A stretch of 39,451 nucleotides of DNA from the sequence record PZ445455.1; one strand, 5' to 3'. This DNA is from a phage. A model generated the notes under the pieces. It was not told the DNA's origin. It did no database searches and was given only the letters and a program-made list of their open reading frames with translations. Below are positions 2,425-38,427 of this stretch, piece by piece. The position numbers and the translations under genes are program-made. How positions within the stretch are numbered: the first letter of the stretch is position 1; every line of letters begins with the position of its first letter.

Positions 2425-2573
2425 TCTCACAGTGTACGGACCTAAAGTTCCCCCCCCATAGGGGCCCCTAAAGCCCAGCCAATCACCTTGAGCCAACCTT
2501 CGGTTGACCTTGATGGTCCCTAAGGGTTGGGGTTGGTCCCTTGGTGTTACCTTGAGTGTCTCTCTGTGTCCCT
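2425..2573. repeat. Terminal repeat (single collapsed copy; physical genome ends / concatemer junction)
   Basis: Begins tctcacagtgtacggacctaaag, the T7 left-end sequence as recalled; boundaries inferred by analogy to the T7 160-bp TR. Confidence 0.55.
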
Positions 2574-2579
2574 ATCTGT

Positions 2580-2752
2580 TACAGTCTCCTAAAGTATCCT
2601 CCTAAAGTCACCTCCTAAAGTCATTCCTACCGTCTACAGCCTAAAGACTACACTTAAAGACCCATTCAGTCAATCCCTATCTTAAAGATAATCCTAAAGA
2701 CCATCCTAAAGACCAGCCTAAAGACCATCATAAAGCCTATTCCTAAAGATGC
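2580..2752. repeat. Array of short CCTAAAG / TAAAG direct repeats adjacent to terminal repeat
   Basis: At least 12 spaced copies of cctaaag or related heptamers visible in sequence; corresponds to T7 left-end short repeats. Confidence 0.7.
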
Positions 2753-2794
2753 CTTGTTGTTATCTATAAAGAGATAATCTTCATCCATTGTCTT

Positions 2795-2817
2795 TAATAC
2801 GACTCACTATAGAGAGA
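2795..2817 (+). promoter_or_regulatory. Phage RNAP promoter phiOL (variant +1 region tatagagaga)
   Basis: taatacgactcactatagagaga; matches consensus at -17 to +1. Confidence 0.75.
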
Positions 2818-2873
2818 GACTACTTAAAGAGGCCTTAAAGATGGATTAATTTAAAGATTTATTAAAAAGAGTA

Positions 2874-2910
2874 TTGACTTAAAGTCTAACCTATAGGATA
2901 CTTACAGCCA
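2874..2910 (+). promoter_or_regulatory. Host sigma70 early promoter A1
   Basis: -35 ttgact and -10 gatact with 17-bp spacing; matches T7 A1 as recalled. Confidence 0.8.
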
Positions 2911-2999
2911 TCGAGAGGGACACGGCGAATAACCATCCAATCGATACCGGGGTCAACCGGATAAGTAGACAGCCTGATAAGTCGTATGAAAAACAGGTA

Positions 3000-3037
3000 T
3001 TGACAACATGAAGTAACAAGTAGTAAGATATACAGCG
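3000..3037 (+). promoter_or_regulatory. Host sigma70 early promoter A2
   Basis: -35 ttgaca, -10 taagat; aaaacaggtattgacaacatgaagtaaca as in T7 A2. Confidence 0.75.
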
Positions 3038-3105
3038 TCAACCACTGACACGGTGTCTTCTAGGTGACTTAAGCGCACCACGGCACATAAAGTGAAACAA
3101 AACGG

Positions 3106-3142
3106 TTGACAACATGAAGTAAACACGGTACGATGTACCACA
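3106..3142 (+). promoter_or_regulatory. Host sigma70 early promoter A3
   Basis: -35 ttgaca, -10 tacgat; aaacggttgacaacatgaagtaaacacggtacgatgtacca as in T7 A3. Confidence 0.8.
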
Positions 3143-3255
3143 CGAAATGACTGAACAGTGAGTCACCACACTGAAAGGTGATGCGGTCTAACGAAACCTG
3201 ACCAAAGACGCTCTTTAACAATCTGGTAAATAGCTCTTGAGTGCATGACTAGCGG

Positions 3256-3293
3256 ATAACTCAAGGGTATCGCAAGGTGCCCTTTATGATATT
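3256..3293 (+). promoter_or_regulatory. RNase III processing hairpin R0.3
   Basis: ctcaagg...ccctttatgat hairpin motif shared with the other R sites. Confidence 0.5.
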
Positions 3294-3323
3294 CACTAAC
3301 AACCACACATGAGGTAACACAAG

Positions 3324-3686
3324 ATGGCTATGTCTAACATGACTTATCACAACGTTTTCGATCACGCTTACGAAATGCTGAAAGAAAATATCCGTTATGA
3401 TGACATCCGTGACGCTGATGACCTGCACGACGCAGTGCACATGGCAGCCGATAACGCCGTTCCGCACTATTACAGTGACATTTTCAGTGTAATGGCAAGC
3501 GAGGGCATTGACCTTGAGTTCGAGGATTCTGGTCTGATGCCGGACACCAAGGACGTAATTCGCATCCTGCAAGCTCGCATCTATGAGCAACTCACAATCG
3601 ACCTCTGGGAAGATGCAGAAGACTTACTGAACGAGTATCTTGAGGAAGTCGAGGAAGATGAAGACTACGAAGAGGATGAAGAGTAA
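3324..3686 (+). CDS. ocr: Ocr (gp0.3) DNA-mimic anti-restriction protein
   Basis: 120 aa, highly acidic, near-identical to T7 Ocr; C-terminal acidic tail 3 aa longer. Confidence 0.95.
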
Positions 3687-3841
3687 TGGCTAACAACACC
3701 ACGCAATACGGTCTGACCGCTCAAACTGTACTGTTTTATAGTGACATGGTGCGCTGTGGCTTTAACTGGTCGCTCGCAATGGCACACCTTAAGGAACTGT
3801 ACGAGAACAACAAGGCAATAGCTTTGGAATCTGCTGAGTGA
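3686..3841 (+). CDS. 0.4: gp0.4 (51 aa; cell-division inhibitor in T7)
   Basis: ATG overlaps ocr stop (TAATG); translation [51 protein letters not shown] matches T7 gp0.4. Confidence 0.8.
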   Translation: MANNTTQYGLTAQTVLFYSDMVRCGFNWSLAMAHLKELYENNKAIALESAE

Positions 3842-3844
3842 TAG

Positions 3845-3880
3845 ACTCAAGGTCGCTCAATACGAGTGGCCTTTATGATT
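3845..3880 (+). promoter_or_regulatory. RNase III processing hairpin R0.5
   Basis: gactcaaggtcgctcaatacgagtggcctttatgatt. Confidence 0.6.
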
Positions 3881-3903
3881 ATCATTCTATGAGGGTTAAA
3901 CGC

Positions 3904-8189: not shown

Positions 8190-8265
8190 CCTTAAGGTTT
8201 AACTTTAAGACCCTTAAGTGTTAATTAAAGATTTAAATTAAAGAATTACTAAGAGAGAGGACTTT
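8190..8265. promoter_or_regulatory. AT-rich region of the primary replication origin (downstream of phi1.1A/phi1.1B)
   Basis: Very AT-rich tract ttaactttaagacccttaagtgttaattaaagatttaaattaaagaattac; position analogous to the T7 primary origin. Confidence 0.5.
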
Positions 8266-8269
8266 AAGT

Positions 8270-8398
8270 ATGCGTAACTTCGAAAAGATGACCAAACGTT
8301 CTAACCGTAACGCTCATGACTTCGAGGCAACTAAAGGTCGCAAGTTGAATAAGACTAAGCGTGACCGTTCCCATAAGCGTAGCTGGGAGGGTCAATAA
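8270..8398 (+). CDS. 1.1: gp1.1 (42 aa basic protein)
   Basis: MRNFEKMTKRSNRNAHDFEATKGRKLNKTKRDRSHKRSWEGQ; matches T7 gp1.1. Confidence 0.8.
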   Translation: MRNFEKMTKRSNRNAHDFEATKGRKLNKTKRDRSHKRSWEGQ

Positions 8399-8399
8399 G

Positions 8400-8657
8400 A
8401 TGGGACGTTTATACAGTGGGAACCTGAATGACTTCAAGGCTGCTTGCAACAGGCTCTACCAGTTAGACTTTGCTGTTATTTGTGATGAATGGTACGATGC
8501 TTACAAACGCCTTGCGTGTATGCGTCTACGTGTAGAGGACAGGGCTGGAAATCTTATTGATACCAATACGTTCTGTCACCACGATGAAGACGTCTTGTAC
8601 AATACGTGTACTGATTGGCTGAACCGGATGCACGACCAGTTGAAGGACTGGAAGTAA
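8400..8657 (+). CDS. 1.2: gp1.2 inhibitor of host dGTP triphosphohydrolase
   Basis: 85 aa starting MGRLYSGNL; matches T7 gp1.2; start chosen at internal ATG of the track ORF 8361..8657. Confidence 0.85.
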   Translation: MGRLYSGNLNDFKAACNRLYQLDFAVICDEWYDAYKRLACMRLRVEDRAGNLIDTNTFCHHDEDVLYNTCTDWLNRMHDQLKDWK

Positions 8658-8677
8658 TACGACTCAGTATAGGGACA
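8655..8677 (+). promoter_or_regulatory. Phage promoter phi1.3 (cagtata variant)
   Basis: taatacgactcagtatagggaca; TAA of gene 1.2 stop is part of the promoter. Confidence 0.85.
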
Positions 8678-8679
8678 AT

Positions 8680-8713
8680 GCTTAAGGTCGCTCTCTGAGT
8701 GGCCTTAGTCATT
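8680..8713 (+). promoter_or_regulatory. RNase III hairpin R1.3
   Basis: gcttaaggtcgctctctgagtggccttagtcatt. Confidence 0.6.
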
Positions 8714-8738
8714 CAACCAAAACATGGAGATAAACATT

Positions 8739-9755
8739 ATGATGAACATTAAGACCAACCCGTTTAAAGCAACGTCTTTCGTAGAGTCTGCCATTAAGAA
8801 GGCTCTTGATAACGCTGGGTATCTTATCGCCGACATTAAGTACGATGGTGTACGTGGGAACATCTGCGTAGACGATACTGCTAACAGTTGCTGGCTCTCT
8901 CGTGTATCTAAAACGATTCCGGCACTGGAGCACTTAAACGGATTCGATGTTCGCTGGAAGCGTCTGCTGAACGATGACCGTTGCTTCTACAAAGATGGCT
9001 TTATGCTCGATGGGGAACTCATGGTCAAGGGAGTAGACTTTAACACTGGGTCCGGCCTACTGCGTACCAAGTGGCTAAACAAGAAGAACTTTGAGTTCGA
9101 CGTTGGCGGTGTGCCACCACTTAAGGGGTCCAAGGTTGAGTTCGAGTTGGACACCAAACGTCTGAGTGTCCGACTGTACGCTATCCTCCCGCTTCACATC
9201 GTGGAGTCTGGGGAAGACCATGATGTCATGACGTTACTCATGCAGGAACACGTTAAGAACATGCTGCCTCTGCTACAGGAATACTTCCCTGAAATCGAAT
9301 GGCAAGCGGCTGAGTCTTACGAGGTTTACGACATGGTGGAACTACAGCAACTGTACGAGAAGAAGCGAGCGGAAGGCCATGAGGGTCTCATTGTGAAAGA
9401 CCCGATGTGCATCTACAAGCGCGGTAAGAAGTCCGGCTGGTTCAAGCTCAAGCCAGAGAACGAGGCTGATGGTATCATCCAAGGTGTGAATTGGGGTACA
9501 GAAGGTCTAGCCAACGAAGGTAAGGTAATAGGGTTCACGGTGCTTCTTGAGACAGGGCGTATTGTAGACGCTAACAATATCTCTCGCGCCTTAATGGACG
9601 AATTTACCGCCAACGTTAAGGAGCACGGGGAGGACTACTATAACGGATGGTCTTGCCAAGTAAATTATATGGAGGAAACAAAAGATGGAAGCCTTAGACA
9701 CCCTTCCTTCACCTGCTTCCGAGGGGTTGAGGGAAATCGTTGCGAAAAGATTTAA
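8739..9755 (+). CDS. 1.3: ATP-dependent DNA ligase (gp1.3)
   Basis: MMNIKTNPFKA...; contains KYDGVRG adenylation motif; 338 aa versus 359 in T7 (C-terminal region differs); start at ATG after ggag RBS, not the upstream in-frame ATG at 8724. Confidence 0.93.
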   Translation: MMNIKTNPFKATSFVESAIKKALDNAGYLIADIKYDGVRGNICVDDTANSCWLSRVSKTIPALEHLNGFDVRWKRLLNDDRCFYKDGFMLDGELMVKGVDFNTGSGLLRTKWLNKKNFEFDVGGVPPLKGSKVEFELDTKRLSVRLYAILPLHIVESGEDHDVMTLLMQEHVKNMLPLLQEYFPEIEWQAAESYEVYDMVELQQLYEKKRAEGHEGLIVKDPMCIYKRGKKSGWFKLKPENEADGIIQGVNWGTEGLANEGKVIGFTVLLETGRIVDANNISRALMDEFTANVKEHGEDYYNGWSCQVNYMEETKDGSLRHPSFTCFRGVEGNRCEKI

Positions 9756-10176
9756 GGTTAACAGGGAGGCTCCTAGCGGCCTCTCTCGCGTTAGCGGGAA
9801 ACCAGTCGGCTACAAGAAGTCTAGCGGATACTGGAATATCCACGTTTCCGTTAACAACAAGTCTCACCATCTACTTGCGCATAGGGTTATATGGGAACTC
9901 ACTTACGGAGAGATACCCTCTGGAATGCAGATAGACCACATTAATAGAGACAGGTCTGATAATCGCATAGAGAACCTTAGACTCGTTACTATGACAGAGA
10001 ATATGCACAATAAGGGAGACTACGTGACCAACACTACCGGTCATAAATACGTCATGTATCGTAAAGATAGGAATGCGTACATATTCAGAATAAAGCGATT
10101 TGGCAAACTACATACTTCATACCACAAGACTTTGGATGAGGCTGTGGAGGCCAAGCGGTTGTTCCTTAATCAGTAA
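9685..10176 (+). CDS. HNH endonuclease (putative homing endonuclease)
   Basis: 163 aa; HNH motif HHLLAHRVIWELTYGEIPSGMQIDHINRDRSDNRIENLRLVTMTENMHNK; ggagg RBS 9 nt upstream; overlaps ligase 3' end by 71 nt in another frame; stop abuts TE. Confidence 0.85.
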   Translation: MEALDTLPSPASEGLREIVAKRFKVNREAPSGLSRVSGKPVGYKKSSGYWNIHVSVNNKSHHLLAHRVIWELTYGEIPSGMQIDHINRDRSDNRIENLRLVTMTENMHNKGDYVTNTTGHKYVMYRKDRNAYIFRIKRFGKLHTSYHKTLDEAVEAKRLFLNQ

Positions 10177-10214
10177 CCACACTGGCTCACCTTCGGGTGG
10201 GCCTTTCTGCGTTT
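10177..10214 (+). terminator. Early terminator TE (host RNAP, rho-independent)
   Basis: ccacactggctcaccttcgggtgggcctttctgcgttt: GC stem-loop plus U-rich tract; same sequence as T7 TE. Confidence 0.85.
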
Positions 10215-10236
10215 AATACGACTCACTAAAGGAGGT
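10214..10236 (+). promoter_or_regulatory. Phage promoter phi1.5 (cactaaagg class II variant)
   Basis: taatacgactcactaaaggaggt. Confidence 0.85.
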
Positions 10237-10243
10237 ACACACC

Positions 10244-10333
10244 ATGATGTACTTAATGCCATTACTCATTGTCATCATAGGATGCCTTGCGCTCCACTAC
10301 AGCGATGACGATATGCCAGATGGTCACGCTTGA
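10244..10333 (+). CDS. 1.5: gp1.5 mini-protein (29 aa)
   Basis: MMYLMPLLIVIIGCLALHYSDDDMPDGHA; matches T7 gp1.5 with 2 substitutions. Confidence 0.75.
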   Translation: MMYLMPLLIVIIGCLALHYSDDDMPDGHA

Positions 10334-10357
10334 CAACACCCGCTAAGGAGACACCCT

Positions 10358-10474
10358 ATGATGTACTTAATGCCATTACTGATGCTATTCTTGGTGTCAT
10401 TACTCATTCTCATCCCTGTATATGCTGTACTACGTGATGATGACGATGATGACACACAAGATGACCATGCTTAA
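10358..10474 (+). CDS. Diverged tandem paralog of gp1.5 (38 aa, hydrophobic core + poly-Asp tail)
   Basis: MMYLMPLLMLFLVSLLILIPVYAVLRDDDDDDTQDDHA; first 23 nt identical to gene 1.5; own aaggagacac RBS; stop TAA inside phi1.6. Confidence 0.6.
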   Translation: MMYLMPLLMLFLVSLLILIPVYAVLRDDDDDDTQDDHA

Positions 10475-10494
10475 TACGACTCACTAAAGGAGAC
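10472..10494 (+). promoter_or_regulatory. Phage promoter phi1.6
   Basis: taatacgactcactaaaggagac. Confidence 0.85.
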
Positions 10495-10499
10495 ACTAT

Positions 10500-10760
10500 A
10501 TGTTTCGACTTCATTACAACAAAAGCATTAAGAATTTCACGGTTCGCCGTGCTGACCGTTCAATCGTATGTGCGAGCGAACGCCGAGCTAAATTACCTCT
10601 TATTGGTAACACAGTTCCTCTGGCACCGAGCGTCCACATCATTATCACCCGTGGTGACTTTGAGAAAGCAATAGACAAGAAACGTCCGGTTCTTAGTGTG
10701 GCAGTGACCCGCTTCCCGTTCGTCCGTCTGTTACTCAAACGTATCAAGGAGGTGTTCTGA
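10500..10760 (+). CDS. 1.6: gp1.6
   Basis: 86 aa [31 protein letters not shown]...; near-identical to T7 gp1.6. Confidence 0.9.
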
Positions 10761-11288
10761 TGGGATGCATAGCGTGCTTAGAGAAAGACGACCGTTATCC
10801 ACATACCTGTAATAAAGGAGCTAACGATATGACCGAACGTGAACAAGAGATGATCATTAAGTTGATAGACAATAACGAAGGTCGCCCAGATGATTTGAAT
10901 GGCTGCGGACTTCTCTGCTCTAATGTCCCTTGTCACCTCTGCCCCGCAAATAACGATCAAAAGATAACCCTAGGTGAAATCCGAGCGATGGACCCACGTA
11001 AGCCTAAACTGGAGAAACCTGAGGTAACTACTACAGATGACCAGCCTTCCGCTAAGTCAATCGAAGGTGTCACTAAGCCTTCCCACTACATGCTGTTTGA
11101 CGACATTGAGGCTATCGAAGTGATTGCTCGTTCAATGACTCGTGAGCAGTTCAAAGGTTATTGCTTTGGGAATATCTTAAAGTACAGACTACGTGCTGGT
11201 AAGAAGTCCGAACTAGCTTACTTAGAGAAAGACATGGCGAAAGCTGGGTTCTACGGTGAACTGTACGAGAAACATAAGGATAAGTGCT

Positions 11289-12371: not shown

Positions 12372-12827
12372 GTGGCTGGCGCATACGCTGCGCGTGGTAT
12401 CCGAAAGGTCGGGGCATTCCGTTCCGGCCTAGAAGATAAGGTCTCTAAGCAGCTAGAGAGTAAAGGTATACAGTTTGATTACGAGCAGTGGAAGATTCCC
12501 TACGTAGTCCCTGCGAGTAATCATACCTATTGCCCAGATTTTCTACTGCCCAATGGTATCTTCATCGAGACCAAAGGGCTATGGGAAAGTGATGACCGCA
12601 AGAAGCATCTCCTGATTCGCGAGCAGATGCCTGAGCTGGATATACGACTTGTGTTCTCAAGCTCCCGCACAAAACTCTACAAAGGGTCTCCAACGTCCTA
12701 TGCAGAATTTTGTGAAAAGCACGGCATCAAGTTTGCTGATAAGCTGATTCCAGTTGAGTGGCTCAAAGAGCCTAAACGGGAGGTGCCATTCGATAAGCTC
12801 AAACAGTCAAAAGGAGCTAAGAAGTGA
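12372..12827 (+). CDS. 3: Endonuclease I (Holliday junction resolvase, gp3)
   Basis: 151 aa, GTG start immediately after 2.5 stop; near-identical to T7 gp3. Confidence 0.92.
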   Translation: MAGAYAARGIRKVGAFRSGLEDKVSKQLESKGIQFDYEQWKIPYVVPASNHTYCPDFLLPNGIFIETKGLWESDDRKKHLLIREQMPELDIRLVFSSSRTKLYKGSPTSYAEFCEKHGIKFADKLIPVEWLKEPKREVPFDKLKQSKGAKK

Positions 12828-13282
12828 TTCATCCAAAACTCTTGATAGAGCCGACCGATTCCTGTATTGAATGGACAGGCGCGTTCCACAAGAACGGGTA
12901 CGGAGTAATCTCTTTGAATCGCAAAGTGGCTGCCGAGCTAGGAATACCTAGGGTGCAATTTGTACACAGGGCAAGCTACATGCAGCATAAAGGAACTATA
13001 GGTGATGGACTTGTTGTTCGTCACTTGTGTCACAACAGAAAGTGTTTCAACCCAGCTCACTTGGAAGTCGGCACTCAGTACGATAACTTCGAAGATAGTG
13101 TTAAGGTTGGGCGCAACAAACGTAAACTGCTTGATGAGGACGTTAAATCAATTAGAGAGTCCACAATGAGTAACCGCAAGTTAGCCAAGCTATACGGTGT
13201 TAGCTCTACAACGATCTTCCACATCAAGCACAACAACAAGTGGAGGAATTTAAATGGCACGAGTACAATTCAAACAGCGTGA
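12824..13282 (+). CDS. HNH endonuclease with C-terminal helix-turn-helix (putative homing endonuclease)
   Basis: 152 aa; GTG start overlapping gene 3 stop, aaggag RBS; HNH motif VRHLCHNRKCFNPAHLEVGTQYDN; C-terminal NRKLAKLYGVSSTTIFHIKHN HTH-like; overlaps gene 3.5 start by 29 nt. Confidence 0.8.
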   Translation: MIHPKLLIEPTDSCIEWTGAFHKNGYGVISLNRKVAAELGIPRVQFVHRASYMQHKGTIGDGLVVRHLCHNRKCFNPAHLEVGTQYDNFEDSVKVGRNKRKLLDEDVKSIRESTMSNRKLAKLYGVSSTTIFHIKHNNKWRNLNGTSTIQTA

Positions 13283-13709
13283 AAGCACCGATGCAATCTT
13301 CGTTCATTGCTCAGCAACAAAACCTAATATGAATTGGGGTGTACGTGAGATTCGCCAGTCGCATAAAGAGCGTGGATTCCTAGATGTGGGATACCACTTT
13401 ATCATCAAGCGTGATGGTACTGTAGAGACCGGTCGAGACGAGATGGCTGTAGGCTCTCACGCTAAGGGCTACAATCACAACTCTATTGGTGTCTGCCTTG
13501 TAGGTGGCATCGACGATAAAGGTAAGTTTGACGCTAACTTTACGCCAGCCCAAATGCAATCCCTCCGCTCGCTGCTTGTCACACTTCTGGCTAAGTACGA
13601 AGGCGCTGTGCTTCGCGCCCATCACGATGTGGCACCTAAGGCTTGCCCTTCGTTCGACCTTAAGCGTTGGTGGGAAACTAACGAACTGGTCACTTCTGAC
13701 CGTGGATAA
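13254..13709 (+). CDS. 3.5: Lysozyme / N-acetylmuramoyl-L-alanine amidase and RNAP inhibitor (gp3.5)
   Basis: 151 aa; near-identical to T7 lysozyme. Confidence 0.95.
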   Translation: MARVQFKQRESTDAIFVHCSATKPNMNWGVREIRQSHKERGFLDVGYHFIIKRDGTVETGRDEMAVGSHAKGYNHNSIGVCLVGGIDDKGKFDANFTPAQMQSLRSLLVTLLAKYEGAVLRAHHDVAPKACPSFDLKRWWETNELVTSDRG

Positions 13710-13733: not shown

Positions 13734-13765
13734 CCACAACGGTTTCCCTTTGTTCGCATTGTTGA

Positions 13766-15539
<1,774 letters not shown>

Positions 15540-18683: not shown

Positions 18684-18702
18684 TTCTATAGGAGAAATTA
18701 TT

Positions 18703-19005
18703 ATGGCTATGACCAAGAAATTTAAAGTATCATTCGACGTTACCGCTGTAATCACTAGCGAAGGTGAACGAAACATACAAGACTGCGTCATGCGAGTTGC
18801 CAAGGCAGTAGCCGCTGGTGAACAAGTTGACGACTTTAAGAAAGAGTTGCTTGTCCAAGCGTTGACGAATGGTCCTGAGGGCCTCGCTACGTTCCTGATT
18901 AAGCATGGACTTCGCTCATTCGTTAAGGATAGCTACAATGACCTGAGCGAGTCTGAGCGTAAACTGATTCGACTCTCTCCTGCAACTGTACGGGAGGTGT
19001 TCTGA
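18703..19005 (+). CDS. 5.5: gp5.5 (H-NS-binding protein in T7)
   Basis: 100 aa from MAMTKKFKVSFDVTA ... SPATVREVF; ggag RBS; only 19 bp after gene 5 (no gene 5.3). Confidence 0.8.
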   Translation: MAMTKKFKVSFDVTAVITSEGERNIQDCVMRVAKAVAAGEQVDDFKKELLVQALTNGPEGLATFLIKHGLRSFVKDSYNDLSESERKLIRLSPATVREVF

Positions 19006-21692: not shown

Positions 21693-21706
21693 TCAGGAGG
21701 TGACAC

Positions 21707-23317
21707 ATGGCTGAGAAGCGTAAAGGTCTAGCCGAGGAAGGTGCAAAGTCGGTATATGAACGATTGAAGAACGACCGCGCTCCGTATGAGACTCGTGCTC
21801 AAAACTGCGCTCAGTACACCATTCCGTCCCTCTTCCCTAAGGATTCCGACAACTCATCCACAGACTACACAACTCCGTGGCAAGCTGTGGGTGCTCGCGG
21901 TCTCAATAACTTGGCCTCTAAGCTCATGCTGGCTCTCTTCCCGATGCAAACGTGGATGAAACTGACCATCTCTGAGTATGAGGCTAAACAGTTACTGAAT
22001 GACCCCGATGGACTCGCTAAGGTCGATGAGGGTCTCTCGATGGTAGAGCGTATCATCATGAACTACATTGAGTCTAACAGTTACCGAGTGACTCTCTTTG
22101 AGGCTCTCAAACAGTTAGTCGTAGCTGGTAACGTCCTGCTGTACCTACCGGAACCGGAAGGGTCAAACTATAATCCCATGAAGCTGTACCGATTGTCTTC
22201 TTATGTGGTCCAACGAGACGCATTTGGCAACGTTCTGCAAATGGTGACTCGTGACCAGATAGCTTTCGGTGCTCTCCCTGAGGACATCCGTAAGGCTGTA
22301 GAAGGCAAAGGTGGAGAGAAGAAAGCTGATGAGACAATCGATGTGTACACTCACATCTATCTGGACGAAGACTCTGGTGAGTATGTCCGATATGAAGAGG
22401 TAGAGGGCATGGAGGTTCAAGGCTCCGATGGGACTTACCCTAAAGAGGCTTGCCCATACATCCCGATTCGGATGGTTCGACTGGACGGAGAATCCTACGG
22501 TCGTTCGTACATTGAGGAGTACTTAGGTGACTTACGGTCCCTTGAGAACCTCCAAGAGGCTATCGTCAAGATGTCAATGATTAGCTCTAAGGTTATCGGC
22601 TTAGTGAATCCTGCTGGTATAACCCAGCCACGCCGACTGACCAAAGCTCAGACTGGTGACTTCGTTACTGGTCGTCCAGAAGACATCTCGTTCCTCCAAC
22701 TGGAGAAGCAAGCAGACTTTACTGTAGCTAAAGCCGTAAGTGACGCTATCGAGGCTCGCCTTTCGTTTGCCTTTATGTTGAACTCTGCTGTTCAGCGCAC
22801 AGGTGAACGTGTGACCGCCGAAGAGATTCGGTATGTCGCTTCTGAACTTGAAGATACTTTAGGTGGTGTCTACTCTATCCTTTCTCAAGAACTACAATTG
22901 CCTCTGGTACGAGTGCTCTTGAAGCAACTACAAGCCACGCAACAGATTCCTGAGTTACCTAAGGAAGCCGTAGAGCCAACCATTAGTACAGGTCTGGAAG
23001 CAATCGGTCGTGGTCAAGACCTTGATAAGCTGGAGCGTTGTGTCACTGCGTGGGCTGCTCTTGCTCCTATGCGTGATGACCCTGACATCAACCTTGCAAT
23101 GATTAAGCTGCGTATTGCCAACGCTATCGGCATTGACACTTCTGGCATTCTACTCACCGAAGAACAGAAGCAACAGAAGATGGTCCAACAGTCTACGCAA
23201 ATGGGTATGGATAACGGTGCTTCTGCGCTGGCTCAAGGCATGGCTGCACAGGCTACAGCCTCACCTGAGGCTATGGTTGCTGCCGCTGATTCCGTAGGTC
23301 TACAGCCGGGAATTTAA
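21707..23317 (+). CDS. 8: Head-tail connector (portal) protein gp8
   Basis: 536 aa; near-identical to T7 gp8. Confidence 0.97.
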   Translation: MAEKRKGLAEEGAKSVYERLKNDRAPYETRAQNCAQYTIPSLFPKDSDNSSTDYTTPWQAVGARGLNNLASKLMLALFPMQTWMKLTISEYEAKQLLNDPDGLAKVDEGLSMVERIIMNYIESNSYRVTLFEALKQLVVAGNVLLYLPEPEGSNYNPMKLYRLSSYVVQRDAFGNVLQMVTRDQIAFGALPEDIRKAVEGKGGEKKADETIDVYTHIYLDEDSGEYVRYEEVEGMEVQGSDGTYPKEACPYIPIRMVRLDGESYGRSYIEEYLGDLRSLENLQEAIVKMSMISSKVIGLVNPAGITQPRRLTKAQTGDFVTGRPEDISFLQLEKQADFTVAKAVSDAIEARLSFAFMLNSAVQRTGERVTAEEIRYVASELEDTLGGVYSILSQELQLPLVRVLLKQLQATQQIPELPKEAVEPTISTGLEAIGRGQDLDKLERCVTAWAALAPMRDDPDINLAMIKLRIANAIGIDTSGILLTEEQKQQKMVQQSTQMGMDNGASALAQGMAAQATASPEAMVAAADSVGLQPGI

Positions 23318-32066: not shown

Positions 32067-35000
32067 ATGGATAAGTACGATAAGAACGTACCAAGTGATT
32101 ATGATGGTCTGTTCCAAAAGGCGGCTGATGCCAACGGGGTCTCTTATGACCTTTTACGTAAAGTCGCTTGGACAGAATCACGATTTGTGCCTACAGCAAA
32201 ATCTAAGACTGGACCATTAGGCATGATGCAATTTACCAAGGCAACAGCTAAGGCCCTAGGTCTGAGAGTTACCGATGGTCCAGACGACGACCGACTGAAC
32301 CCTGAGTTAGCCATCAATGCTGCCGCTAAGCACCTTGCAGGTCTGGTGGGTAAATTCGATGGTGACGAACTCAAAGCTGCCCTTGCGTACAACCAAGGCG
32401 AGGGACGCTTGGGTAATCCACAACTTGAGGCGTACTCTAGGGGAGACTTCGCATCCATCTCTGAGGAGGGGCGTAACTACATGCGTAACCTTCTGGATGT
32501 TGCCAAGTCGCCTATGGCTGGACAGTTGGAAACTTTTGGTGGCATAACCCCAAAGGGTAAAGGTATTCCGGCTGAGGTAGGATTGGCTGGAATTGGTCAC
32601 AAGCAGAAAGTAACACAGGAACTTCCTGAGTCCACAAGTTTTGACGTCAAGGGTATCGAACAGGAGGCTCCGGCGAAACCATTCGCCAAGGACTTTTGGG
32701 AGACCCACGGAGAAACACTTGACGAGTACAACAGTCGTTCAACCTTCTTCGGATTCAAAGACGCTGCCGAAGCTGAACTCTCCAACTCAGTCGCTGGAAT
32801 GGCTTTCCGTGCTGGTCGTCTCGATAATGGTTTTGATGTGTTTAAAGACACCATTACGCCGACTCGCTGGAACTCTCACATCTGGACTCCAGAAGAGTTA
32901 GAGAAGATTCGAACCGAGGTTAAGAACCCTGCGTATATCAACGTGGTAACTGGTGGTTCCCCTGAGAATCTTGACGACCTCATTAAGCTGGCTAACGATA
33001 ACTTTGAGAATGACTCACGCGCTGCCGAAGCTGGACTTGGTGCCAAACTGAGTGCTGGCGTTATTGGTGCTGGTGTGGACCCACTCAGCTATGTTCCTAT
33101 GGTCGGTGTAACTGGTAAGGGCTTTAAGTTAATCAATAAGGCTCTTGTAGTTGGTGCCGAAAGTGCTGCTCTGAACGTTGCATCCGAAGGTCTCCGCACC
33201 TCCGTAGCTGGTGGTGACGCAGACTATGCTGGTGCGGCCTTAGGTGGCTTTTTGTTTGGCGCTGGTATGTCTGCAATCAGTGACGCTGTAGCTGCTGGTC
33301 TGAAACGTAGCAAACCAGAAGCTGAGTTCGATAATGAGTTCATTGGCCCTATGATGCGATTGGAAGCCCGTGAGACAGCGCGTAACGCCAACTCTGCGGA
33401 CCTCTCTCGTATGAACACTGAGAACATGAAGTTTGAAGGTGAACATAATGGTGTCCCTTATGAGGACTTACCAACAGAGAGAGGTGCCGTGGTGTTACAT
33501 GATGGCTCCGTTCTAAGTGCAAGCAACCCAATCAACCCTAAGACTCTCCAAGAGTTCTCCGAGGTTGACCCTGAGAAGGCCGCACGAGGAATAAAACTTG
33601 CTGGGTTCACCGAGATTGGCTTGAAGACCTTGGGGTCTGACGATGCTGACATCCGTAGAGTGGCTATCGACCTCGTTCGCTCTCCTACTGGTATGCAGTC
33701 TGGTGCCTCAGGTAAGTTCGGTGCAACAGCTTCTGACATCCATGAGAGACTTCGTGGTACCGACCAGCGTACTTACAATGACCTGTACAAAGCAATGTCT
33801 GACGCTATGAAAGACCCTGAGTTCTCTACTGGCGGCGCTAAGATGTCCCGTGAAGAAACTCGCTACACTATCTACCGTAGAGCGGCACTAGCTATTGAGC
33901 GTCCAGAACTACAGAAGGTACTCACTCCGTCTGAGAGAATCGTTATGGACATCATTAAGCGTCACTTTGACACCAAGCGTGAACTCATGGAGAACCCAGC
34001 AATCTTCGGTAATACGAAGGCTGTTAGTATCTTCCCTGAGAGTCGTCACAAGGGAACATACGTTCCTCATGTTTATGACCGCCATGCTAAGGCGTTGATG
34101 ATTCAACGGTATGGTGCCGAAGGTTTACAGGAGGCCATCAAGAAGTCATGGCTAGCAAGCTATGTGTCAAGACCTGAAGTCAAGGCACGAGTGGACGAGA
34201 TGCTGGCAGGGCAGTTACGGGCATCTCAACCAACAGGTAAGACTGCGGGTACTACACCTAATAAGCACTCTTCTGTCGACACAGCCCGTTACCAGATGAA
34301 ACTGGACGATGCAGCTACACAGGCAAGTGATAAGGTATCGGAACTAAAAGACGTCCTGACCAACGCTGAGAAGCGAGTTGCGGACCGTGAAAGGAAACTC
34401 CAGAACTCCAAGGACAGACTAGCTTCGCATGAGGCTAAGCTGAAGGAGTTGGAAGAAAAACTAGCTGCTAAACCTAATAGCAAAACCCTTCCTGTTAAGA
34501 TTGAGAGCCGGAAGCAGATGATTGAGACCCAGAAGTCTCACGTCCGTATTAACACAGAGCGTCTCGACTACATGAAAGGACAGGCTGCTAGGGTCCAAGA
34601 CAGAATCACCAAAGCCGCCGCCGAAGCTGAAGCAGCCGCCTCCGCTGCCAAAGGGCAGAAGACTACTGTTGGCGGTGAGGACACTACTGCTGGTGAGGCT
34701 ATATTAGGTAACGCACCTCAATCAGTACAAGAGGTGACTATGGACATGGTCGAGAAGTACGCTATGGACAAGGCATATGGTATCTCCCACTCTGACCAGT
34801 TCTCCAACAGCTCCGTAATTGAAGAGAACATTGAGGGCCTAGTAGGTATTGAGAACAACTCGTTCCTTGAAGCCCGTAACTTGTTTGATTCTGACATATC
34901 TATCACAATGCCGGACGGACAACAGTTTGCGGTGAACGACCTAAGGGACTTCGATATGTTCCGCATCATGCCAGCGTATGACCGCCGTATCAACGGCGAC

Positions 35001-36527
35001 ATCGCCATCATGGGGTCTACCGGTAAAACCACTAAGGAACTTAAGGATGAGATTTTGGCTCTCAAAGCGAAAGCTGAGGGAGACGGTAAGAAGACAGGCG
35101 AGGTCCATGCTCTCATGGATACCATTAAGATTCTTACTGGTCGTGCTCGACGCAATCAGGACACTGTGTGGGAAACCTCACTGCGTTCCATCAATGACCT
35201 AGGGTTCTTCGCTAAGAACGCCTATATGGGTGCTCAGAACCTTACGGAGATTGCTGGGATGATTGCCACGGGTAACGTGCGTGCTCTTGGTCACGGTATC
35301 CCAATTCTACGCGATACCCTCTACAAGTCTAAACCAGTTTCCGCTAAGGAACTCAAGGAACTCCATGCGTCTCTATTCGGGAAGGAGGTGGACCAGTTGA
35401 TTCGCCCTAAACGTGCTGACATTGTGCAGCGCCTAAGGGAAGCTACTGATACCGGACCTGCTGTGGCGAACATCGTAGGGACCTTGAAGTATTCCACACA
35501 GGAACTGGCTGCTCGCTCTCCGTGGACTAAGATGCTGAACGGAACCACTAACTACCTTCTTGATGCTGCGCGTCAAGGTATGCTTGGGGACGTTATCAGT
35601 GCCACCTTAACAGGTAAGACTACCCGTTGGGAGAAAGAGGGATTCCTTCGGGGTGCCTCTGTGACCCCTGAGCAGATGGCTGGCATCAAGTCTCTCATCA
35701 AGGAACACATGGTACGCGGTGAGGACGGTAAGTTTACCGTTAAGGACAAGCAAGCGTTCTCTATGGACCCTCGCGCTATGGACTTATGGCGACTTGCTGA
35801 CAAGGTAGCTGATGAGGCAATGCTGCGTCCGCATAAGGTGTCCTTACAGGATTCCCATGCGTTCGGGGCATTAGGGAAGATGGTCATGCAGTTTAAGTCC
35901 TTCACTATCAAATCCCTTAACTCTAAGTTCCTGCGAACCTTCTACGACGGGTACAAGAACAACCGAGCGATTGACGCTGCGCTGACTGGCATTATCTCTA
36001 TGGGTCTCGCTGGTGGTTACTACGCTATGGCTGCACACGTCAAAGCGTATGGAATGCCTAAGGAGAAACGTAAAGAATACTTGGAGCGTGCATTGGACCC
36101 AACCATGATTGCCCATGCTTCGTTGTCTCGTAGTTCTCAATTGGGCGCTCCTTTGGCTATGGCTGACCTAGTTGGCGGTGTCTTAGGGTTCGAGTCCTCC
36201 AAGATGGCTCGCTCTACGATTCTACCTAAGGACACCATGAAGGAACGTGACCCAAACAAACCGTACACCTCAAGAGAGGTAATGGGAGCTATGGGTTCGA
36301 ACCTTCTGGAGCAGATGCCTTCCGCTGGCTTTGTGGCTAACGTAGGGGCTACCTTAATGAATGCTGCTGGTGTGGTTAATTCACCTAACAAGGCAACCGA
36401 GCAGGACTTCATGACTGGCTTGATGAACTCTACCAAAGAGTTGGTCCCTAACGACCCTCTTACTCAACAGCTTGTTATGAAAATTTATGAGGCCAATGGT
36501 GTTAACTTGAGGGAGCGTCGGAAATAA
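32067..36527 (+). CDS. 16: Internal core / ejection protein gp16 with N-terminal lytic transglycosylase domain; contains about 175-aa insertion
   Basis: 1486 aa versus 1318 in T7; N-terminal transglycosylase region (TESRF...GPLGMMQFTKAT) and rest collinear with T7 gp16 except segment 34206-34730. Confidence 0.95.
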   Translation: MDKYDKNVPSDYDGLFQKAADANGVSYDLLRKVAWTESRFVPTAKSKTGPLGMMQFTKATAKALGLRVTDGPDDDRLNPELAINAAAKHLAGLVGKFDGDELKAALAYNQGEGRLGNPQLEAYSRGDFASISEEGRNYMRNLLDVAKSPMAGQLETFGGITPKGKGIPAEVGLAGIGHKQKVTQELPESTSFDVKGIEQEAPAKPFAKDFWETHGETLDEYNSRSTFFGFKDAAEAELSNSVAGMAFRAGRLDNGFDVFKDTITPTRWNSHIWTPEELEKIRTEVKNPAYINVVTGGSPENLDDLIKLANDNFENDSRAAEAGLGAKLSAGVIGAGVDPLSYVPMVGVTGKGFKLINKALVVGAESAALNVASEGLRTSVAGGDADYAGAALGGFLFGAGMSAISDAVAAGLKRSKPEAEFDNEFIGPMMRLEARETARNANSADLSRMNTENMKFEGEHNGVPYEDLPTERGAVVLHDGSVLSASNPINPKTLQEFSEVDPEKAARGIKLAGFTEIGLKTLGSDDADIRRVAIDLVRSPTGMQSGASGKFGATASDIHERLRGTDQRTYNDLYKAMSDAMKDPEFSTGGAKMSREETRYTIYRRAALAIERPELQKVLTPSERIVMDIIKRHFDTKRELMENPAIFGNTKAVSIFPESRHKGTYVPHVYDRHAKALMIQRYGAEGLQEAIKKSWLASYVSRPEVKARVDEMLAGQLRASQPTGKTAGTTPNKHSSVDTARYQMKLDDAATQASDKVSELKDVLTNAEKRVADRERKLQNSKDRLASHEAKLKELEEKLAAKPNSKTLPVKIESRKQMIETQKSHVRINTERLDYMKGQAARVQDRITKAAAEAEAAASAAKGQKTTVGGEDTTAGEAILGNAPQSVQEVTMDMVEKYAMDKAYGISHSDQFSNSSVIEENIEGLVGIENNSFLEARNLFDSDISITMPDGQQFAVNDLRDFDMFRIMPAYDRRINGDIAIMGSTGKTTKELKDEILALKAKAEGDGKKTGEVHALMDTIKILTGRARRNQDTVWETSLRSINDLGFFAKNAYMGAQNLTEIAGMIATGNVRALGHGIPILRDTLYKSKPVSAKELKELHASLFGKEVDQLIRPKRADIVQRLREATDTGPAVANIVGTLKYSTQELAARSPWTKMLNGTTNYLLDAARQGMLGDVISATLTGKTTRWEKEGFLRGASVTPEQMAGIKSLIKEHMVRGEDGKFTVKDKQAFSMDPRAMDLWRLADKVADEAMLRPHKVSLQDSHAFGALGKMVMQFKSFTIKSLNSKFLRTFYDGYKNNRAIDAALTGIISMGLAGGYYAMAAHVKAYGMPKEKRKEYLERALDPTMIAHASLSRSSQLGAPLAMADLVGGVLGFESSKMARSTILPKDTMKERDPNKPYTSREVMGAMGSNLLEQMPSAGFVANVGATLMNAAGVVNSPNKATEQDFMTGLMNSTKELVPNDPLTQQLVMKIYEANGVNLRERRK

Positions 36528-36599: not shown

Positions 36600-38399
36600 A
36601 TGGCTAACGTAATTAAAACCGTTTTGACTTACCAGTTAGATGGCTCCAATCGTGATTTTAATATCCCGTTTGAGTATCTAGCCCGTAAGTTCGTAGTGGT
36701 AACTCTTATTGGTGTAGACCGCAAGGTCCTTACGATTAATACAGACTACCGTTTTGCTACGCGTACTACCATCTCACTGACCAAGGCTTGGGGTCCGGCA
36801 GATGGCTACACTACCATCGAGTTACGTCGAGTAACCTCCACGACCGACCGCTTGGTTGACTTTACGGACGGCTCAATCCTCCGTGCGTATGACCTTAACG
36901 TTGCTCAGATTCAAACGATGCACGTAGCAGAAGAGGCCCGTGACCTAACTGCCGATACTATCGGTGTCAATAATGATGGTCACTTGGATGCGCGCGGTCG
37001 TCGAATTGTCAACCTAGCGAACGCCGTGGATGACCGTGATGCTGTTCCGTTTGGTCAACTTAAGACCATGAACCAGAACTCGTGGCAAGCACGTAATGAG
37101 GCCCTTCAGTTCCGTAATGAGGCTGAGACTTTCAGAAATCAAGCGGAGGGCTTTAAAACTGAGTCAGGTGCTAATGCTACTAATACGAAGCAGTGGCGTG
37201 ATGATGCTAAGGGGTTCCGAGATGAAGCCGAGCAGTTCAAGAATACGGCTGGTCAATATGCTACATCTGCTGGGAACTCTGCTACTGCTGCGCATCAATC
37301 TGAGGTAAACGCTGAGAACTCTGCCACAGCATCCGCTAACTCTGCCCATTCGGCAGAACAGCAAGCAGACCGCGCTAAGAGCGAGGCTGATAAGCTGGCG
37401 AATAATAATGCGTTCGCGGGGACGCTACACTCTATAACCCCAGATAACCCTGCTGTAATGGGCTCAGGTACTGTTACCTTCAAGTCGTCCTATGCGGTGA
37501 ATGCTCCAATACTTAGGGCGACAAAAGGTGGCATGTCTCTGGGGAGCGATAGAGTTGATGGAGATGGTACCTCCACGTTCATCAACTTCTACAAAGACTC
37601 TAGAAACACTGTAGGTAGTATTCAAGTAGGAGATGACGGCACATTCACCATAAATTCCAACGGCTGGACGAAACTCGCTGGCAGCGTCACACAGGTGAAC
37701 CAGCTGCGTTCTGGATACTCAGAGGTTACAGTAAACAACAACAATGTAGCCGTCCACGCCAGAGCAACAAATCTCAGTTGGGATGATGGTCAGACAAACG
37801 CAGTATATAACAGATACACGATTGCAGGACGAGGGTCTAGCGTCGAAGGGGTAGATGGAGCGATAATGGATTTTGGCATACGAGAGATAGTAGGTAACAG
37901 GTATGAGGCATATATGTGGGTAGCAGGCTTTGGTAGATCAGCTGTGTGGACATTTGGTCATACTGGCACGTTCACCAGCCCAGCCGATATAGTAGCCAAC
38001 GGGTCGTTAGTCGCTGGTAACAGTCTACGTATTGGGACATGTACCCACGCTTCCGATGGCAACATTTTTGGCTCTATCTGGGGTAACGATTGGTTAAGCA
38101 ATTACCTAAACAGGTCGTTTAAAAGGAAAACCAAAGAATGGACTTCGGTGTGGAATGGGAGAATAGGTGCTGGAGGTGTAGCATGGCTGACCCAAGATGT
38201 ACGTTTTAGAACCATTTGGATACGCACAGAGGCCCGGCCTTCTACGTGGACGCCAATTCAACTGGGCCCTGATGGGATGTACATGGCGCGACCTGACCCT
38301 GGCTGGATTCGGTTCACACTGGCTAACAATGGTACGTCCATAACCAACAACCAAGATGATAACTCTGTTCCTATCGAGATTGCCGTAGAGAATGAGTAA
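36600..38399 (+). CDS. 17: Tail fiber protein gp17 with divergent distal (receptor-binding) domain
   Basis: 599 aa; first about 260 aa near-identical to T7 gp17; remainder divergent but retains scattered gp17 tip motifs and C-terminal ...VENE. Confidence 0.93.
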   Translation: MANVIKTVLTYQLDGSNRDFNIPFEYLARKFVVVTLIGVDRKVLTINTDYRFATRTTISLTKAWGPADGYTTIELRRVTSTTDRLVDFTDGSILRAYDLNVAQIQTMHVAEEARDLTADTIGVNNDGHLDARGRRIVNLANAVDDRDAVPFGQLKTMNQNSWQARNEALQFRNEAETFRNQAEGFKTESGANATNTKQWRDDAKGFRDEAEQFKNTAGQYATSAGNSATAAHQSEVNAENSATASANSAHSAEQQADRAKSEADKLANNNAFAGTLHSITPDNPAVMGSGTVTFKSSYAVNAPILRATKGGMSLGSDRVDGDGTSTFINFYKDSRNTVGSIQVGDDGTFTINSNGWTKLAGSVTQVNQLRSGYSEVTVNNNNVAVHARATNLSWDDGQTNAVYNRYTIAGRGSSVEGVDGAIMDFGIREIVGNRYEAYMWVAGFGRSAVWTFGHTGTFTSPADIVANGSLVAGNSLRIGTCTHASDGNIFGSIWGNDWLSNYLNRSFKRKTKEWTSVWNGRIGAGGVAWLTQDVRFRTIWIRTEARPSTWTPIQLGPDGMYMARPDPGWIRFTLANNGTSITNNQDDNSVPIEIAVENE

Positions 38400-38427
38400 T
38401 CATTCACGTAAACCTTAGGAGGACAGT

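Follow-up and report, generated by a model that had tools for sequence, protein, structure and literature searches.

A probable free-standing HNH_3 homing endonuclease gene of the gene 1.45 lineage between DNA ligase and terminator TE of a T7-like phage

Introduction

In the T7 annotation, DNA ligase gene 1.3 is followed by the early terminator TE and then by gene 1.4, the order given for T7 in a first-pass annotation of the phage sequence analyzed here (record PZ445455.1; the whole 39,451-nt stretch is referred to below as the window). In the window, a further open reading frame (ORF) stands between ligase and TE. What does this ORF encode, from where were its start signals obtained, and has it travelled with its neighbors or apart from them? 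HNH homing-endonuclease genes that follow the ligase in T7-like phages are commonly regarded as variable mobile elements. Nor is the arrangement new, having long carried the name gene 1.45 in the annotation of phiYeO3-12; elements of this kind are annotated at the same spot in many related phages, and the window gene is an ordinary though divergent example. A literature search covering gene 1.45 and ligase-associated homing endonucleases of T7-like phages returned no experimental study of cleavage, target site or biased inheritance.

Results

Reading frame and recruited start signals

All features described are on the plus strand. The predicted HNH_3/AP2-like free-standing homing endonuclease ORF occupies 9685..10176, with an ATG start and a TAA stop (10174-10176), and encodes 163 aa. 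DNA ligase gene 1.3 (8739..9755; protein beginning MMNIKTNPF; TAA at 9753-9755) was matched to Pfam DNA_ligase_A_M (1e-32) and DNA_ligase_C (4e-38); its start at 8739 was chosen on the basis of T7 gp1.3, which begins MMNIK. The 3' end of the ligase gene is overlapped by the HNH ORF, which begins 71 nt before the ligase stop in another frame, exactly as the first-pass annotation had it. Within this dual-coding overlap (9685..9755), leader residues 1-23 of the HNH protein are specified by the ligase tail read in the alternate frame.

A GGAGG Shine-Dalgarno sequence (9671..9675) lies 9 nt 5' of the HNH ATG. It had been described as the ORF's own ribosome-binding site, a description that had to be given up: the motif is real, but it consists of ligase codons (Met-Glu-Glu) that T7, without the insert, has as well. 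By sequence alignment, the HNH ATG corresponds to ligase codons D-G, and the same ATG was found in insert-less T7. Since both GGAGG and ATG are ligase codons found in a phage without the insert, they were recruited and are not the element's own. The 22-residue leader likewise consists of recruited ligase codons; its counterpart is present in T7, where a TAA shuts the frame, and the same alternate-frame peptide (..SEELRT.LKRK..) is encoded in the ligase tail of each of the insert-less phages T3, T7 and phiA1122. The leader was disordered or of low confidence in an AF2 model, and a sister group of HNH proteins located at a second genomic site (below) was alignable to the window protein only from residue 14-18 on. 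ATG 9685 is the sole in-frame start that retains the whole domain, and a GTG occupies the same position in Escherichia phage pO111. TTG 9727 was considered as an alternative start and rejected because it lacks a spaced Shine-Dalgarno sequence and because the position of the ATG/GTG start (9685) is conserved.

Ligase 3' end, insertion and empty sites

The ligase gene was collinear with T7 ligase (85%) up to 9607; from about 9608, blastn aligned its 3' end to neither T7 nor Bas103. This HNH-associated 3' block (9608..9755; KEHGEDYYNGW...FTCFRGVEGNRCEKI) is common to pO111, P1338 and JeanT. Within it, window codons ACC TGC (T-C) replace T7 GTA ATG, whose TAA shuts the HNH frame; the frame is open in the window only because the ligase tail F-T-C-F has replaced F-V-M-F, removing that stop. 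Among 63 ligase loci surveyed, the tail was F[T/S]CF at every HNH-bearing locus, in place of FVMF, FEKF or FDKW. The first-pass annotation had taken the departure of the ligase C-terminus from T7 as consistent with an insertion footprint. A specific difference was indeed found, but HNH-less phiA1122 also carries an FTCF tail, so the tail alone is no proof of co-conversion, and its use as a homing footprint by itself was downgraded. An intron- or intein-encoded origin was rejected on the continuity of the ligase ORF, which runs without interruption to its own stop and in collinearity with the ligases of T7 and pO111; the HNH body follows the stop.

The insertion was defined relative to a precise empty site in phiA1122 (ligase TAA, then CACACTGGCTCACC... 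TE) and comprises 421 bp (9756..10176); the phiA1122 site equals the window minus 9756-10176. The insert is likewise missing from T7 and Bas103, whose ligase tails differ from that of the window. Alignment to T7-group genomes thus yielded insert-less alleles, and the family is found at this site in many T7-like phages but in a patchy manner. GC content was 44.7% in the insertion and 42.1% in the HNH body (genome, 48.7%).

A search for loci with the HNH protein gave only 3 loci, and distribution was instead taken from 63 IMG/VR ligase loci. Intact HNH copies were present at six and remnants at four, so that 57/63 were without an intact copy. The remnants comprised internal deletions (L026, L029), a microhomology deletion in PP74 (L038) and a further remnant (L014); three deletion remnants at the site are independent. 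The site was in three different states among Teseptimaviruses that share about 92-93% identity with the first 25 kb of the window. Homologues of the HNH protein were found in at least 2656 phage records. The lineage at this site, which received its first annotation as gene 1.45 of phiYeO3-12, also occurs in KP32 and JeanTinguely and in no fewer than 40 of the phage records listed. The second site, beside an Rz-like spanin gene, holds the sister group mentioned above (CR44b, CR8 and several Salmonella phages).

Nuclease identity and predicted fold

The ORF product was matched to Pfam HNH_3 (PF13392; E=2.2e-23; 82 bits against a curated cut-off of 24.8 bits; residues 64-107), which bears out the family assignment that had been proposed as a check, and to PHROG 99 'HNH endonuclease' (3e-45), matches well outside what chance would give. 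H66, R67, W70, D84, H85, N93, N97, R99 and N109 were invariant across 60 homologues, and N106 was conserved in at least 90% of them. The motif previously called canonical HNH is intact as an HNH nuclease motif, its form being the D-H...N...N (H-N-N) typical of HNH_3 and I-HmuI. All invariant family residues are present in the window protein, so the core is not degenerate.

The only PDB sequence match was I-HmuI (E=0.18, 19% identity), with D84, H85, N97 and N106 of the window protein aligned to I-HmuI D74, H75, N87 and N96. In the AF2 model (pLDDT 81.5), a beta-beta-alpha core is followed by a three-strand-plus-helix C-terminal domain. The core is predicted to adopt a beta-beta-alpha-metal fold (strands 81-85 and 98-102; helix 103-109), and the best PDB match of the model by Foldseek was again I-HmuI (PDB 1U3E; Bacillus phage SPO1; E 1.4e-4, probability 1.0), with I-PpoI also appearing. 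I-HmuI is a homing-promoting enzyme that nicks a single strand. It is encoded inside a group I intron of a DNA polymerase gene and has a helix-turn-helix C-terminal domain, whereas the window gene is free-standing behind ligase and its product is predicted to carry an AP2-like C-terminal domain.

The modeled C-terminal domain (strands 123-126, 131-138 and 141-147; helix 150-162; pLDDT 90-96) was matched by Foldseek to AP2 structures 3igm, 6sy0 and 7et4 (probability 0.94-0.98; TM about 0.5 on target). The PF00847 AP2 profile gave no match at E up to 10, either with the whole protein or with residues 101-163 alone; many homologues carry PF00847. The AP2-like call was therefore made from the fold prediction and the domain content of homologues, and by the model this C-terminal DNA-binding domain is AP2-like.

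Promoters, terminator and hairpins

A phage-RNAP promoter of T7 consensus type (TAATACGACTCAGTATAGGGACA; 8655..8677) lies upstream of ligase and was assigned by consensus and by its position, which is that of T7 phi1.3; the T7 record annotates phi1.3 immediately 5' of gene 1.3. This promoter would be expected to drive phage-RNAP transcription through ligase and HNH.

The early terminator TE (10184..10215) consists of stem GGCUCACC, loop UUCG and stem GGUGGGCC, followed by the tail UUUCUGCGUUU. Its hairpin (10184-10203; 8-bp GC stem, UUCG loop; dG -16.5 kcal/mol, z -2.4) is identical to the TE annotated in T7 V01146, an experimentally known terminator, and homology to the T7 TE segment picks up again at 10173 (43 nt at 97.7%). 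A simple terminator scan of 8200-10800 returned no site. The scan misses TE because the T-run is interrupted, and the identical T7 hairpin would fail the same T-run rule; TE was therefore called from hairpin identity with the annotated T7 terminator and not from the scan. The HNH ORF had been said to end exactly where the TE hairpin begins; it ends just upstream of TE, with its stop 7 nt before the hairpin. Promoter phi1.5 (TAATACGACTCACTAAAGGAGGT; 10214..10236) is fused directly to TE, an abutment explained by the absence of T7 gene 1.4 from the window. Because the HNH gene stands between the phi1.3-type promoter and TE, it would be transcribed both early by host RNAP and by phage RNAP.

Within the HNH ORF, an internal 9-bp hairpin (AGGGAGGCU/GGCCUCUCU; 9763..9786) encodes ..EAPSG.. 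and is without a U-tract. It is homologous to the putative TE annotated inside phiYeO3-12 gene 1.45.

Relation to gene 1.45 and closest relatives

Gene 1.45 of phiYeO3-12 (AJ251805, 'homologous to HNH endonuclease') belongs to the same family (48% aa identity, E 2e-36), and its homologues include KP32 gp9 and JeanTinguely bas64_0017 ('putative homing endonuclease'). As in the window, genes of the gene 1.45 type overlap the ligase 3' end by 71 nt from their start, have an alternate-frame leader and are accompanied by the F-T-C-F tail; the hairpin inside gene 1.45 (..APSG..) is homologous to the internal hairpin of the window. The gene 1.45 type forms a separate clade with 41-48% identity to the window protein. 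Its only terminator-like hairpin lies inside the ORF, whose 3' end overlaps the phi1.5 promoter, whereas in the window a T7-type TE stands apart from the ORF, past the HNH stop, and the internal hairpin has no U-tract. Loss of the U-tract from the internal hairpin, together with the T7-type TE 3' of the ORF, places the window HNH gene fully inside the early transcription unit. The occurrence of the gene 1.45 lineage at one site in several genera, with divergence to about 40% identity, could also reflect long vertical residence of some use to the phage.

The closest relatives, at 53-62% aa identity, are unannotated or 'hypothetical' HNH ORFs of Escherichia phages pO111, vB_EcoS_P1338 and P483 and of Edwardsiella phage PVN09; the homologous ORFs were left unannotated in the pO111 and P1338 GenBank records. 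In pO111, P1338 and P483, the architecture is like that of the window: ligase tail, internal hairpin, HNH, TE-type hairpin and phi1.5.

Separate histories of the HNH gene and its flanks

Identity matrices for ligase and HNH were discordant between phage pairs. The window and pO111 were 94% identical in ligase and 55% in HNH, whereas pO111 and P1338 were 74% identical in ligase and 86% in HNH. In a sliding identity profile of window and pO111 DNA, the flanks were 92-100% identical and the HNH body 52-66%. The window allele itself was found elsewhere only in one Logan contig (L074), and no deposited phage exceeded 62% aa identity to it. Over ligase tail, HNH and TE hairpin, the two sequences had 3 differences in 768 nt, followed by 15% divergence right downstream; the allele is 99.6% identical to the L074 copy, and similarity stops at TE. 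To the left, the near-identical tract reaches through the ligase tail, its left end lying near the contig end. By these alignments, the HNH gene is shown to have a history separate from that of its flanks, and the L074 tract argues for recent spread or transfer of the window allele. Mobility is further supported by the patchy occurrence among close relatives, the three independent deletion remnants, the sister group at the second site and the low GC content.

These comparisons bear on whether the gene might instead be a domesticated nuclease, kept for phage benefit without self-copying, that excludes or damages co-infecting relatives or helps to degrade host DNA. The same lineage at the same site in several Studiervirinae genera fits such a role, as does a place in the early operon upstream of TE from which the enzyme could act first in a mixed infection, and the 47 synonymous versus 25 non-synonymous codon changes between the pO111 and P1338 HNH genes suggest constraint on the protein. 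However, 57 of the 63 ligase loci are without an intact copy and three independent remnants exist, which marks the gene as dispensable; the conflict between HNH and ligase trees and the near-identical copy in a different background indicate that it moves. A role in interfering with competitors is no alternative to homing, with which it is compatible. Domestication without homing was judged unlikely.

Slightly less probable still is a fixed, inactive relic, in which the ORF would be intact by chance or recent arrival, its enzyme without a target and the gene heading for loss. Remnants left at this position in other phages show decay to be common, and no target site could be pinned down. Both differences between the window and L074 HNH copies are non-synonymous, and two differences are too few for purifying selection on the window allele to be demonstrable. 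Against a relic stand the complete set of invariant catalytic and structural residues, the full-length ORF with its conserved start and the confident model, and 99.6% allele identity in two backgrounds that diverge sharply beyond TE argues for recent transfer. A chance ORF or artefact of annotation, read in the alternate frame across ligase and TE, for which only the two GenBank records lacking the annotation could be cited, was ruled out by the domain and homology results (Pfam E=2e-23, homologues in at least 2656 phage records, a confident I-HmuI-like model and a 421-bp block missing from empty-site relatives) and retains a negligible probability.

Discussion

The ORF is probably a homing endonuclease gene, free-standing and of the HNH_3 type (I-HmuI-like His-Me finger), with an AP2-like domain, belonging to the gene 1.45 lineage. 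The original reading of the locus, a free-standing HNH homing-endonuclease insertion between ligase and TE in the early region transcribed by host RNAP, agrees with all tests made at the level of sequence.

The T4 seg and mob genes are intergenic selfish nucleases that cut a neighboring conserved gene in relatives without them and spread by recombinational repair, co-converting flanking markers; cleavage and marker exclusion have been proven experimentally in that system. The seg products are GIY-YIG enzymes and the mob products HNH enzymes. By analogy, the mechanism proposed for the window HNH gene would be the same, although the mob HNH is unrelated in detail. Expression would start from ATG 9685, and initiation within the translated ligase ORF probably keeps its level low. 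In a mixed infection, the enzyme would nick or cut the ligase-TE region of a co-infecting relative without the allele. The break would be repaired by the T7 recombination machinery with the HNH-bearing genome as template, and repair would carry the neighboring ligase tail along with the HNH gene (co-conversion). The insertion and the altered ligase tail would protect the carrier's own site.

A more speculative extension of the homing reading, which is judged unlikely, is that divergent HNH alleles compete for the site, nuclease versus nuclease, and that placement before TE is a first-strike adaptation of the window's clade when compared with the gene 1.45 clade. The idea is based on the near-identical flanks of the window and pO111 around HNH proteins of 55% identity, a divergence that includes the AP2-like recognition domain. 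If it were true, alleles with shifted specificity would displace each other instead of only invading empty sites, and the pre-TE placement would permit expression by host RNAP within the first minutes.

One small region here displays a whole selfish-gene cycle, with empty sites, occupied sites, allele replacement and deletion remnants. The locus is also a clear case in which a conserved host gene, read in its alternate frame, supplies a mobile gene with start codon, ribosome-binding site and leader. Elements of this sort are markers of recombination boundaries and are relevant both to phage phylogeny and to the engineering of T7-like therapeutic phages.

Genome organization

The 39,451-bp window was a complete, circularly permuted T7-like genome (Teseptimavirus). 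It started at gene 19 (T7 37370) and was thus permuted relative to T7, with which it was collinear except for a handful of block differences; over its first 25 kb it shared ~93% identity with T7 and with Bas103, Bas104 and JeanTinguely of the BASEL collection. Positions 2425-2573 matched T7 at its right end and again at its left end (within segments 1-2573 and 2425-3884), so the terminal repeat is present once. The 3' part of tail-fibre gene 17 (37411-38437) had no nucleotide match to T7, which is the usual receptor-binding-domain swap. Gene 16 (internal virion protein; 32067-36527, 1486 aa) carried an in-frame block of ~168 aa at 34205-34742 without T7 counterpart, whose sole domain match was a weak coiled-coil (Tropomyosin). 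Because this block recurs in several other T7-like phages (96.7% identity to phage NC-A), it is a mosaic gp16 segment, not a mobile gene.

Insertion site and terminators

The HNH ORF occupied exactly 9685-10176 (+ strand, 163 aa) and overlapped the ligase gene 1.3 (TAA at 9753-9755) by 71 nt in a different frame, as placed by the first-pass annotation. Alignment to relatives lacking the insert, also suggested there, gave an empty site in Yersinia phage phiA1122 (ligase ...TAA, one base, CACACTGGCTCACCTTAGGGTGGGCCTTTCTGCGTTT, phi1.5 promoter AATACGACTCACTAAAGG). The window minus 9756-10176 has this arrangement, which makes the element an insertion of 421 bp with the ligase stop on one side and TE on the other. 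Gene 1.4 of T7 was missing from the window and phiA1122, and TE was joined directly to the phi1.5 promoter. The unalignable block was larger against T7 and Bas103 (~9608-9620 to 10172), the final ~45 codons of the ligase being of a different allele type. GC content was 42.1% in the HNH body vs 48.7% in the genome.

The HNH stop codon fell at 10174-10176, and T7 similarity restarted at 10173 (43 nt, 97.7%). The hairpin at 10184-10203, an 8-bp GC stem closed by a UUCG loop, was identical to the annotated TE of T7. A generic terminator scan reported no site, because of the break in the T-run of TE; T7's identical hairpin would likewise be missed, and the scan was not counted against TE. In the window, as in pO111, P1338 and P483, this T7-type TE followed the HNH stop codon, besides a stable 9-bp hairpin inside the coding sequence (about 9763-9786, coding ..EAPSG.., without a U-tract). 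The internal hairpin was homologous to one (GGCTCC TTCG GGAGTC GTTTCC) annotated as putative TE within the HNH ORF of phiYeO3-12 (Yersinia phage, AJ251805; gene 1.45, first annotated member of the lineage) and JeanTinguely, where the T7/T3-type TE was missing and the 3' end of the ORF reached into the phi1.5 promoter. Judged by position, window-type copies would lie wholly within the early, host-RNAP-transcribed unit and phage RNAP starting at the phi1.3-type promoter (8655-8677) would transcribe them too; for gene 1.45-type copies, phage RNAP may be the main polymerase.

Two small ORFs resembling gene 1.5, each beginning MMYLMPLL, lay in tandem at 10245-10334 and 10358-10474. The sequence ahead of the second (10330-10357; TTGACAACACCCGCTAAGGAGA) resembled a decayed T7 promoter. 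This layout was common to the window, Bas103 and JeanTinguely, and was not found in T7, pO111 or the Logan contig L074 (SRR14663239).

Translation signals and leader

The GGAGG at 9671-9675 (9 nt upstream of the HNH ATG) had been read as the gene's own ribosome-binding site, and proved to be borrowed: it is made by ligase codons Met-Glu-Glu, and the ATG at 9685 by Asp-Gly (GAT GGA). Both sit in a highly conserved ligase stretch (...YMEET.DGSLRHPSF...) and are present in insert-less T7. The alternate frame stops after nine codons in T7 and Bas103, at a TAA within GTA ATG (ligase F-V-M-F); the window has ACC TGC (F-T-C-F) there and the frame is open. Among 63 IMG/VR ligase loci and the reference phages, HNH-bearing loci were all F[T/S]CF, and no FVMF, FEKF or FDKW ligase carried the gene.

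Read in the alternate frame, the ligase tails of T3, T7 and phiA1122 already encode ...SEELRT.LKRK..., a gp1.45-type leader. Because this peptide pre-exists there, residues 1-22 are recruited host sequence and not element-borne. In agreement, the leader was disordered or of low confidence in the AlphaFold model, the family-wide N-terminal motif (F.Y..G.L.W) began at F23, whose codon ends on the first base of the ligase stop, and sister nucleases at another genomic site aligned only from residue 14-18 on. pO111 had GTG at the same start position, and no other in-frame start in the window ORF kept the domain intact.

HNH protein

Residues 64-107 matched Pfam HNH_3 (E=2.2e-23, 82 bits, cut-off 24.8), the family named in the first-pass annotation, and the protein matched PHROG 99 'HNH endonuclease' (3e-45). 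Alignment of 60 database homologues gave invariant H66, R67, W70, D84, H85, N93, N97, R99 and N109, with N106 conserved in ≥90%; the window protein has them all. D84/H85/N97/N106 aligned to I-HmuI D74/H75/N87/N96; the motif, called canonical in the first-pass annotation, is of the H-N-N variant form. The AlphaFold model (mean pLDDT 81.5) comprised a beta-hairpin (50-64), a helix (65-74), a beta-beta-alpha core (81-109) and a C-terminal domain of a three-stranded sheet plus helix (123-162, pLDDT 90-96). The top PDB fold match was I-HmuI (E 1.4e-4, probability 1.0). The C-terminal domain matched the fold of AP2 DNA-binding domains (probability 0.94-0.98); the Pfam AP2 profile had no match in the window protein and was found in many homologues. 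The element is an intact HNH_3/AP2-like nuclease gene inserted at a defined site with recruited translation signals. A chance ORF is excluded.

Relatives and lineage

Homologues were found by tblastn in at least 2656 phage records, 125 of them at E<=1e-20. The best 60 all lay over the ligase gene 3' end. Of 60 records sampled across the E<=1e-20 ranking, about two thirds overlapped a ligase gene, in phages of Escherichia, Klebsiella, Yersinia, Shigella, Erwinia, Edwardsiella and other hosts. The closest relatives outside the ligase site adjoined the Rz-like spanin gene 18.5 in CR44b (HG818823; annotated '3.8A predicted homing endonuclease'), CR8 (NC_023548) and several Salmonella phages including ST56; this neighbourhood is a second insertion site of the lineage.

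The earliest record seen was phiYeO3-12 gene 1.45 ('homologous to HNH endonuclease'), which starts 71 nt inside gene 1.3, and the JeanTinguely copy is annotated 'putative homing endonuclease'; the kind, site and ligase overlap of the window gene are already annotated in public records. Identity of the window protein was 62% to P1338 (best among deposited phages), 58% to P483, 55% to pO111, 53% to PVN09 and 41-48% to the gene 1.45 clade. With its TE-downstream layout, the window copy represents a third, divergent clade. A 5.8-billion-protein collection held one 99%-identical cluster, from Logan assemblies only (next best 59%). The homologous ORFs of pO111 (locus L002, 1546-2043) and P1338 (locus L003, 1501-1995) are unannotated in GenBank; the pO111 record lists a 46-aa opposite-strand 'hypothetical protein' instead, and P1338 nothing between ligase and the next gene. 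A literature search turned up no experiments on the gene 1.45 lineage.

Mobility and proposed mechanism

The proposed mechanism follows the known behaviour of I-HmuI and other HNH homing endonucleases, and of T4's free-standing seg and mob genes. Patchy presence, discordant histories, mosaic identity, repeated loss and signs of recent spread all counted as evidence of mobility. An intact copy was present in 6 of the 63 IMG/VR ligase loci. Among phages ~92-93% identical to the window over the first 25 kb, Bas103 had none, JeanTinguely a gene 1.45-type copy and the window its own type. Ligase and HNH identities disagreed (window vs pO111, 94% and 55%; pO111 vs P1338, 74% and 86%; JeanTinguely vs KP32, 75% and 78%), which indicates separate histories. 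In 90-nt bins, window and pO111 were 92-100% identical over 9270-9720 and again from 10170, and only 52-66% across 9810-10170. The HNH gene has a history independent of its flanks.

Loss was repeated. T3 lacked the gene altogether, survey loci L026 and L029 had a clean internal deletion (~412 nt relative to KP32), and locus L014 retained both ends of a gene 1.45-type copy and nothing else. Pectobacterium phage PP74 (L038, ~3023-3220) had, relative to P483 (L046), lost the HNH body by deletion between two copies of GGCTGGC, one in the 5' region of the HNH gene and the other in the TE 3' arm; what remains is a stub ORF of 88 aa and a terminator-like hybrid sequence.

Contig L074 had the same arrangement as the window, with 3/768 differences over 9426-10193 and 15% of positions differing in 10214-10360, where its gene content differed too. 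The near-identical tract thus stops at TE, which points to recent spread.

Taken as a whole, the gene is probably a mobile member of the gene 1.45 lineage of HNH homing-endonuclease genes; the window copy is somewhat more likely than not to be active today. Retention of a domesticated nuclease for phage benefit is improbable, being hard to reconcile with frequent absence and deletions; slightly less probable still is an inactive relic, since the invariant residues are intact and there is a sign of recent transfer. As a homing endonuclease, the enzyme would nick or cut the ligase-TE region of co-infecting relatives without the window allele, T7-type recombination would repair the break off the carrier genome, and repair would copy the nuclease gene and adjacent ligase tail. 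Candidate targets are the ligase-stop/TE junction, split by the insertion, and the conserved ligase tail, where carriers have a different sequence.

Other selfish nuclease genes

Published descriptions of T7-like phages routinely treat homing endonucleases as variable mobile elements (PMC4925675; PMC8594841), and T7 gp3.8 and phiYeO3-12 gp5.3 are termed HNH or homing endonucleases (PMC4925675). A second free-standing HNH ORF (12824-13282, + strand, 152 aa; Pfam HNH_3 1.8e-10, zf-His_Me_endon, HTH) lay between the endonuclease I gene 3 (12372-12827) and the lysozyme gene 3.5 (13254-13709), overlapping both. It was 96.7% identical to phiA1122 'protein 3.3' at the same position and 99.3% to PGX1 and ESh2; T7 has no gene there. 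The T7 (L073) segments with genes 2.8, 3.8, 5.3 and 7.7 (compared at window sites 12375-12396, 13761-13796, 18684-18976 and 21701-21707) and with gene 1.4 had no window counterpart. The window's set of selfish nuclease genes therefore differs from that of T7.
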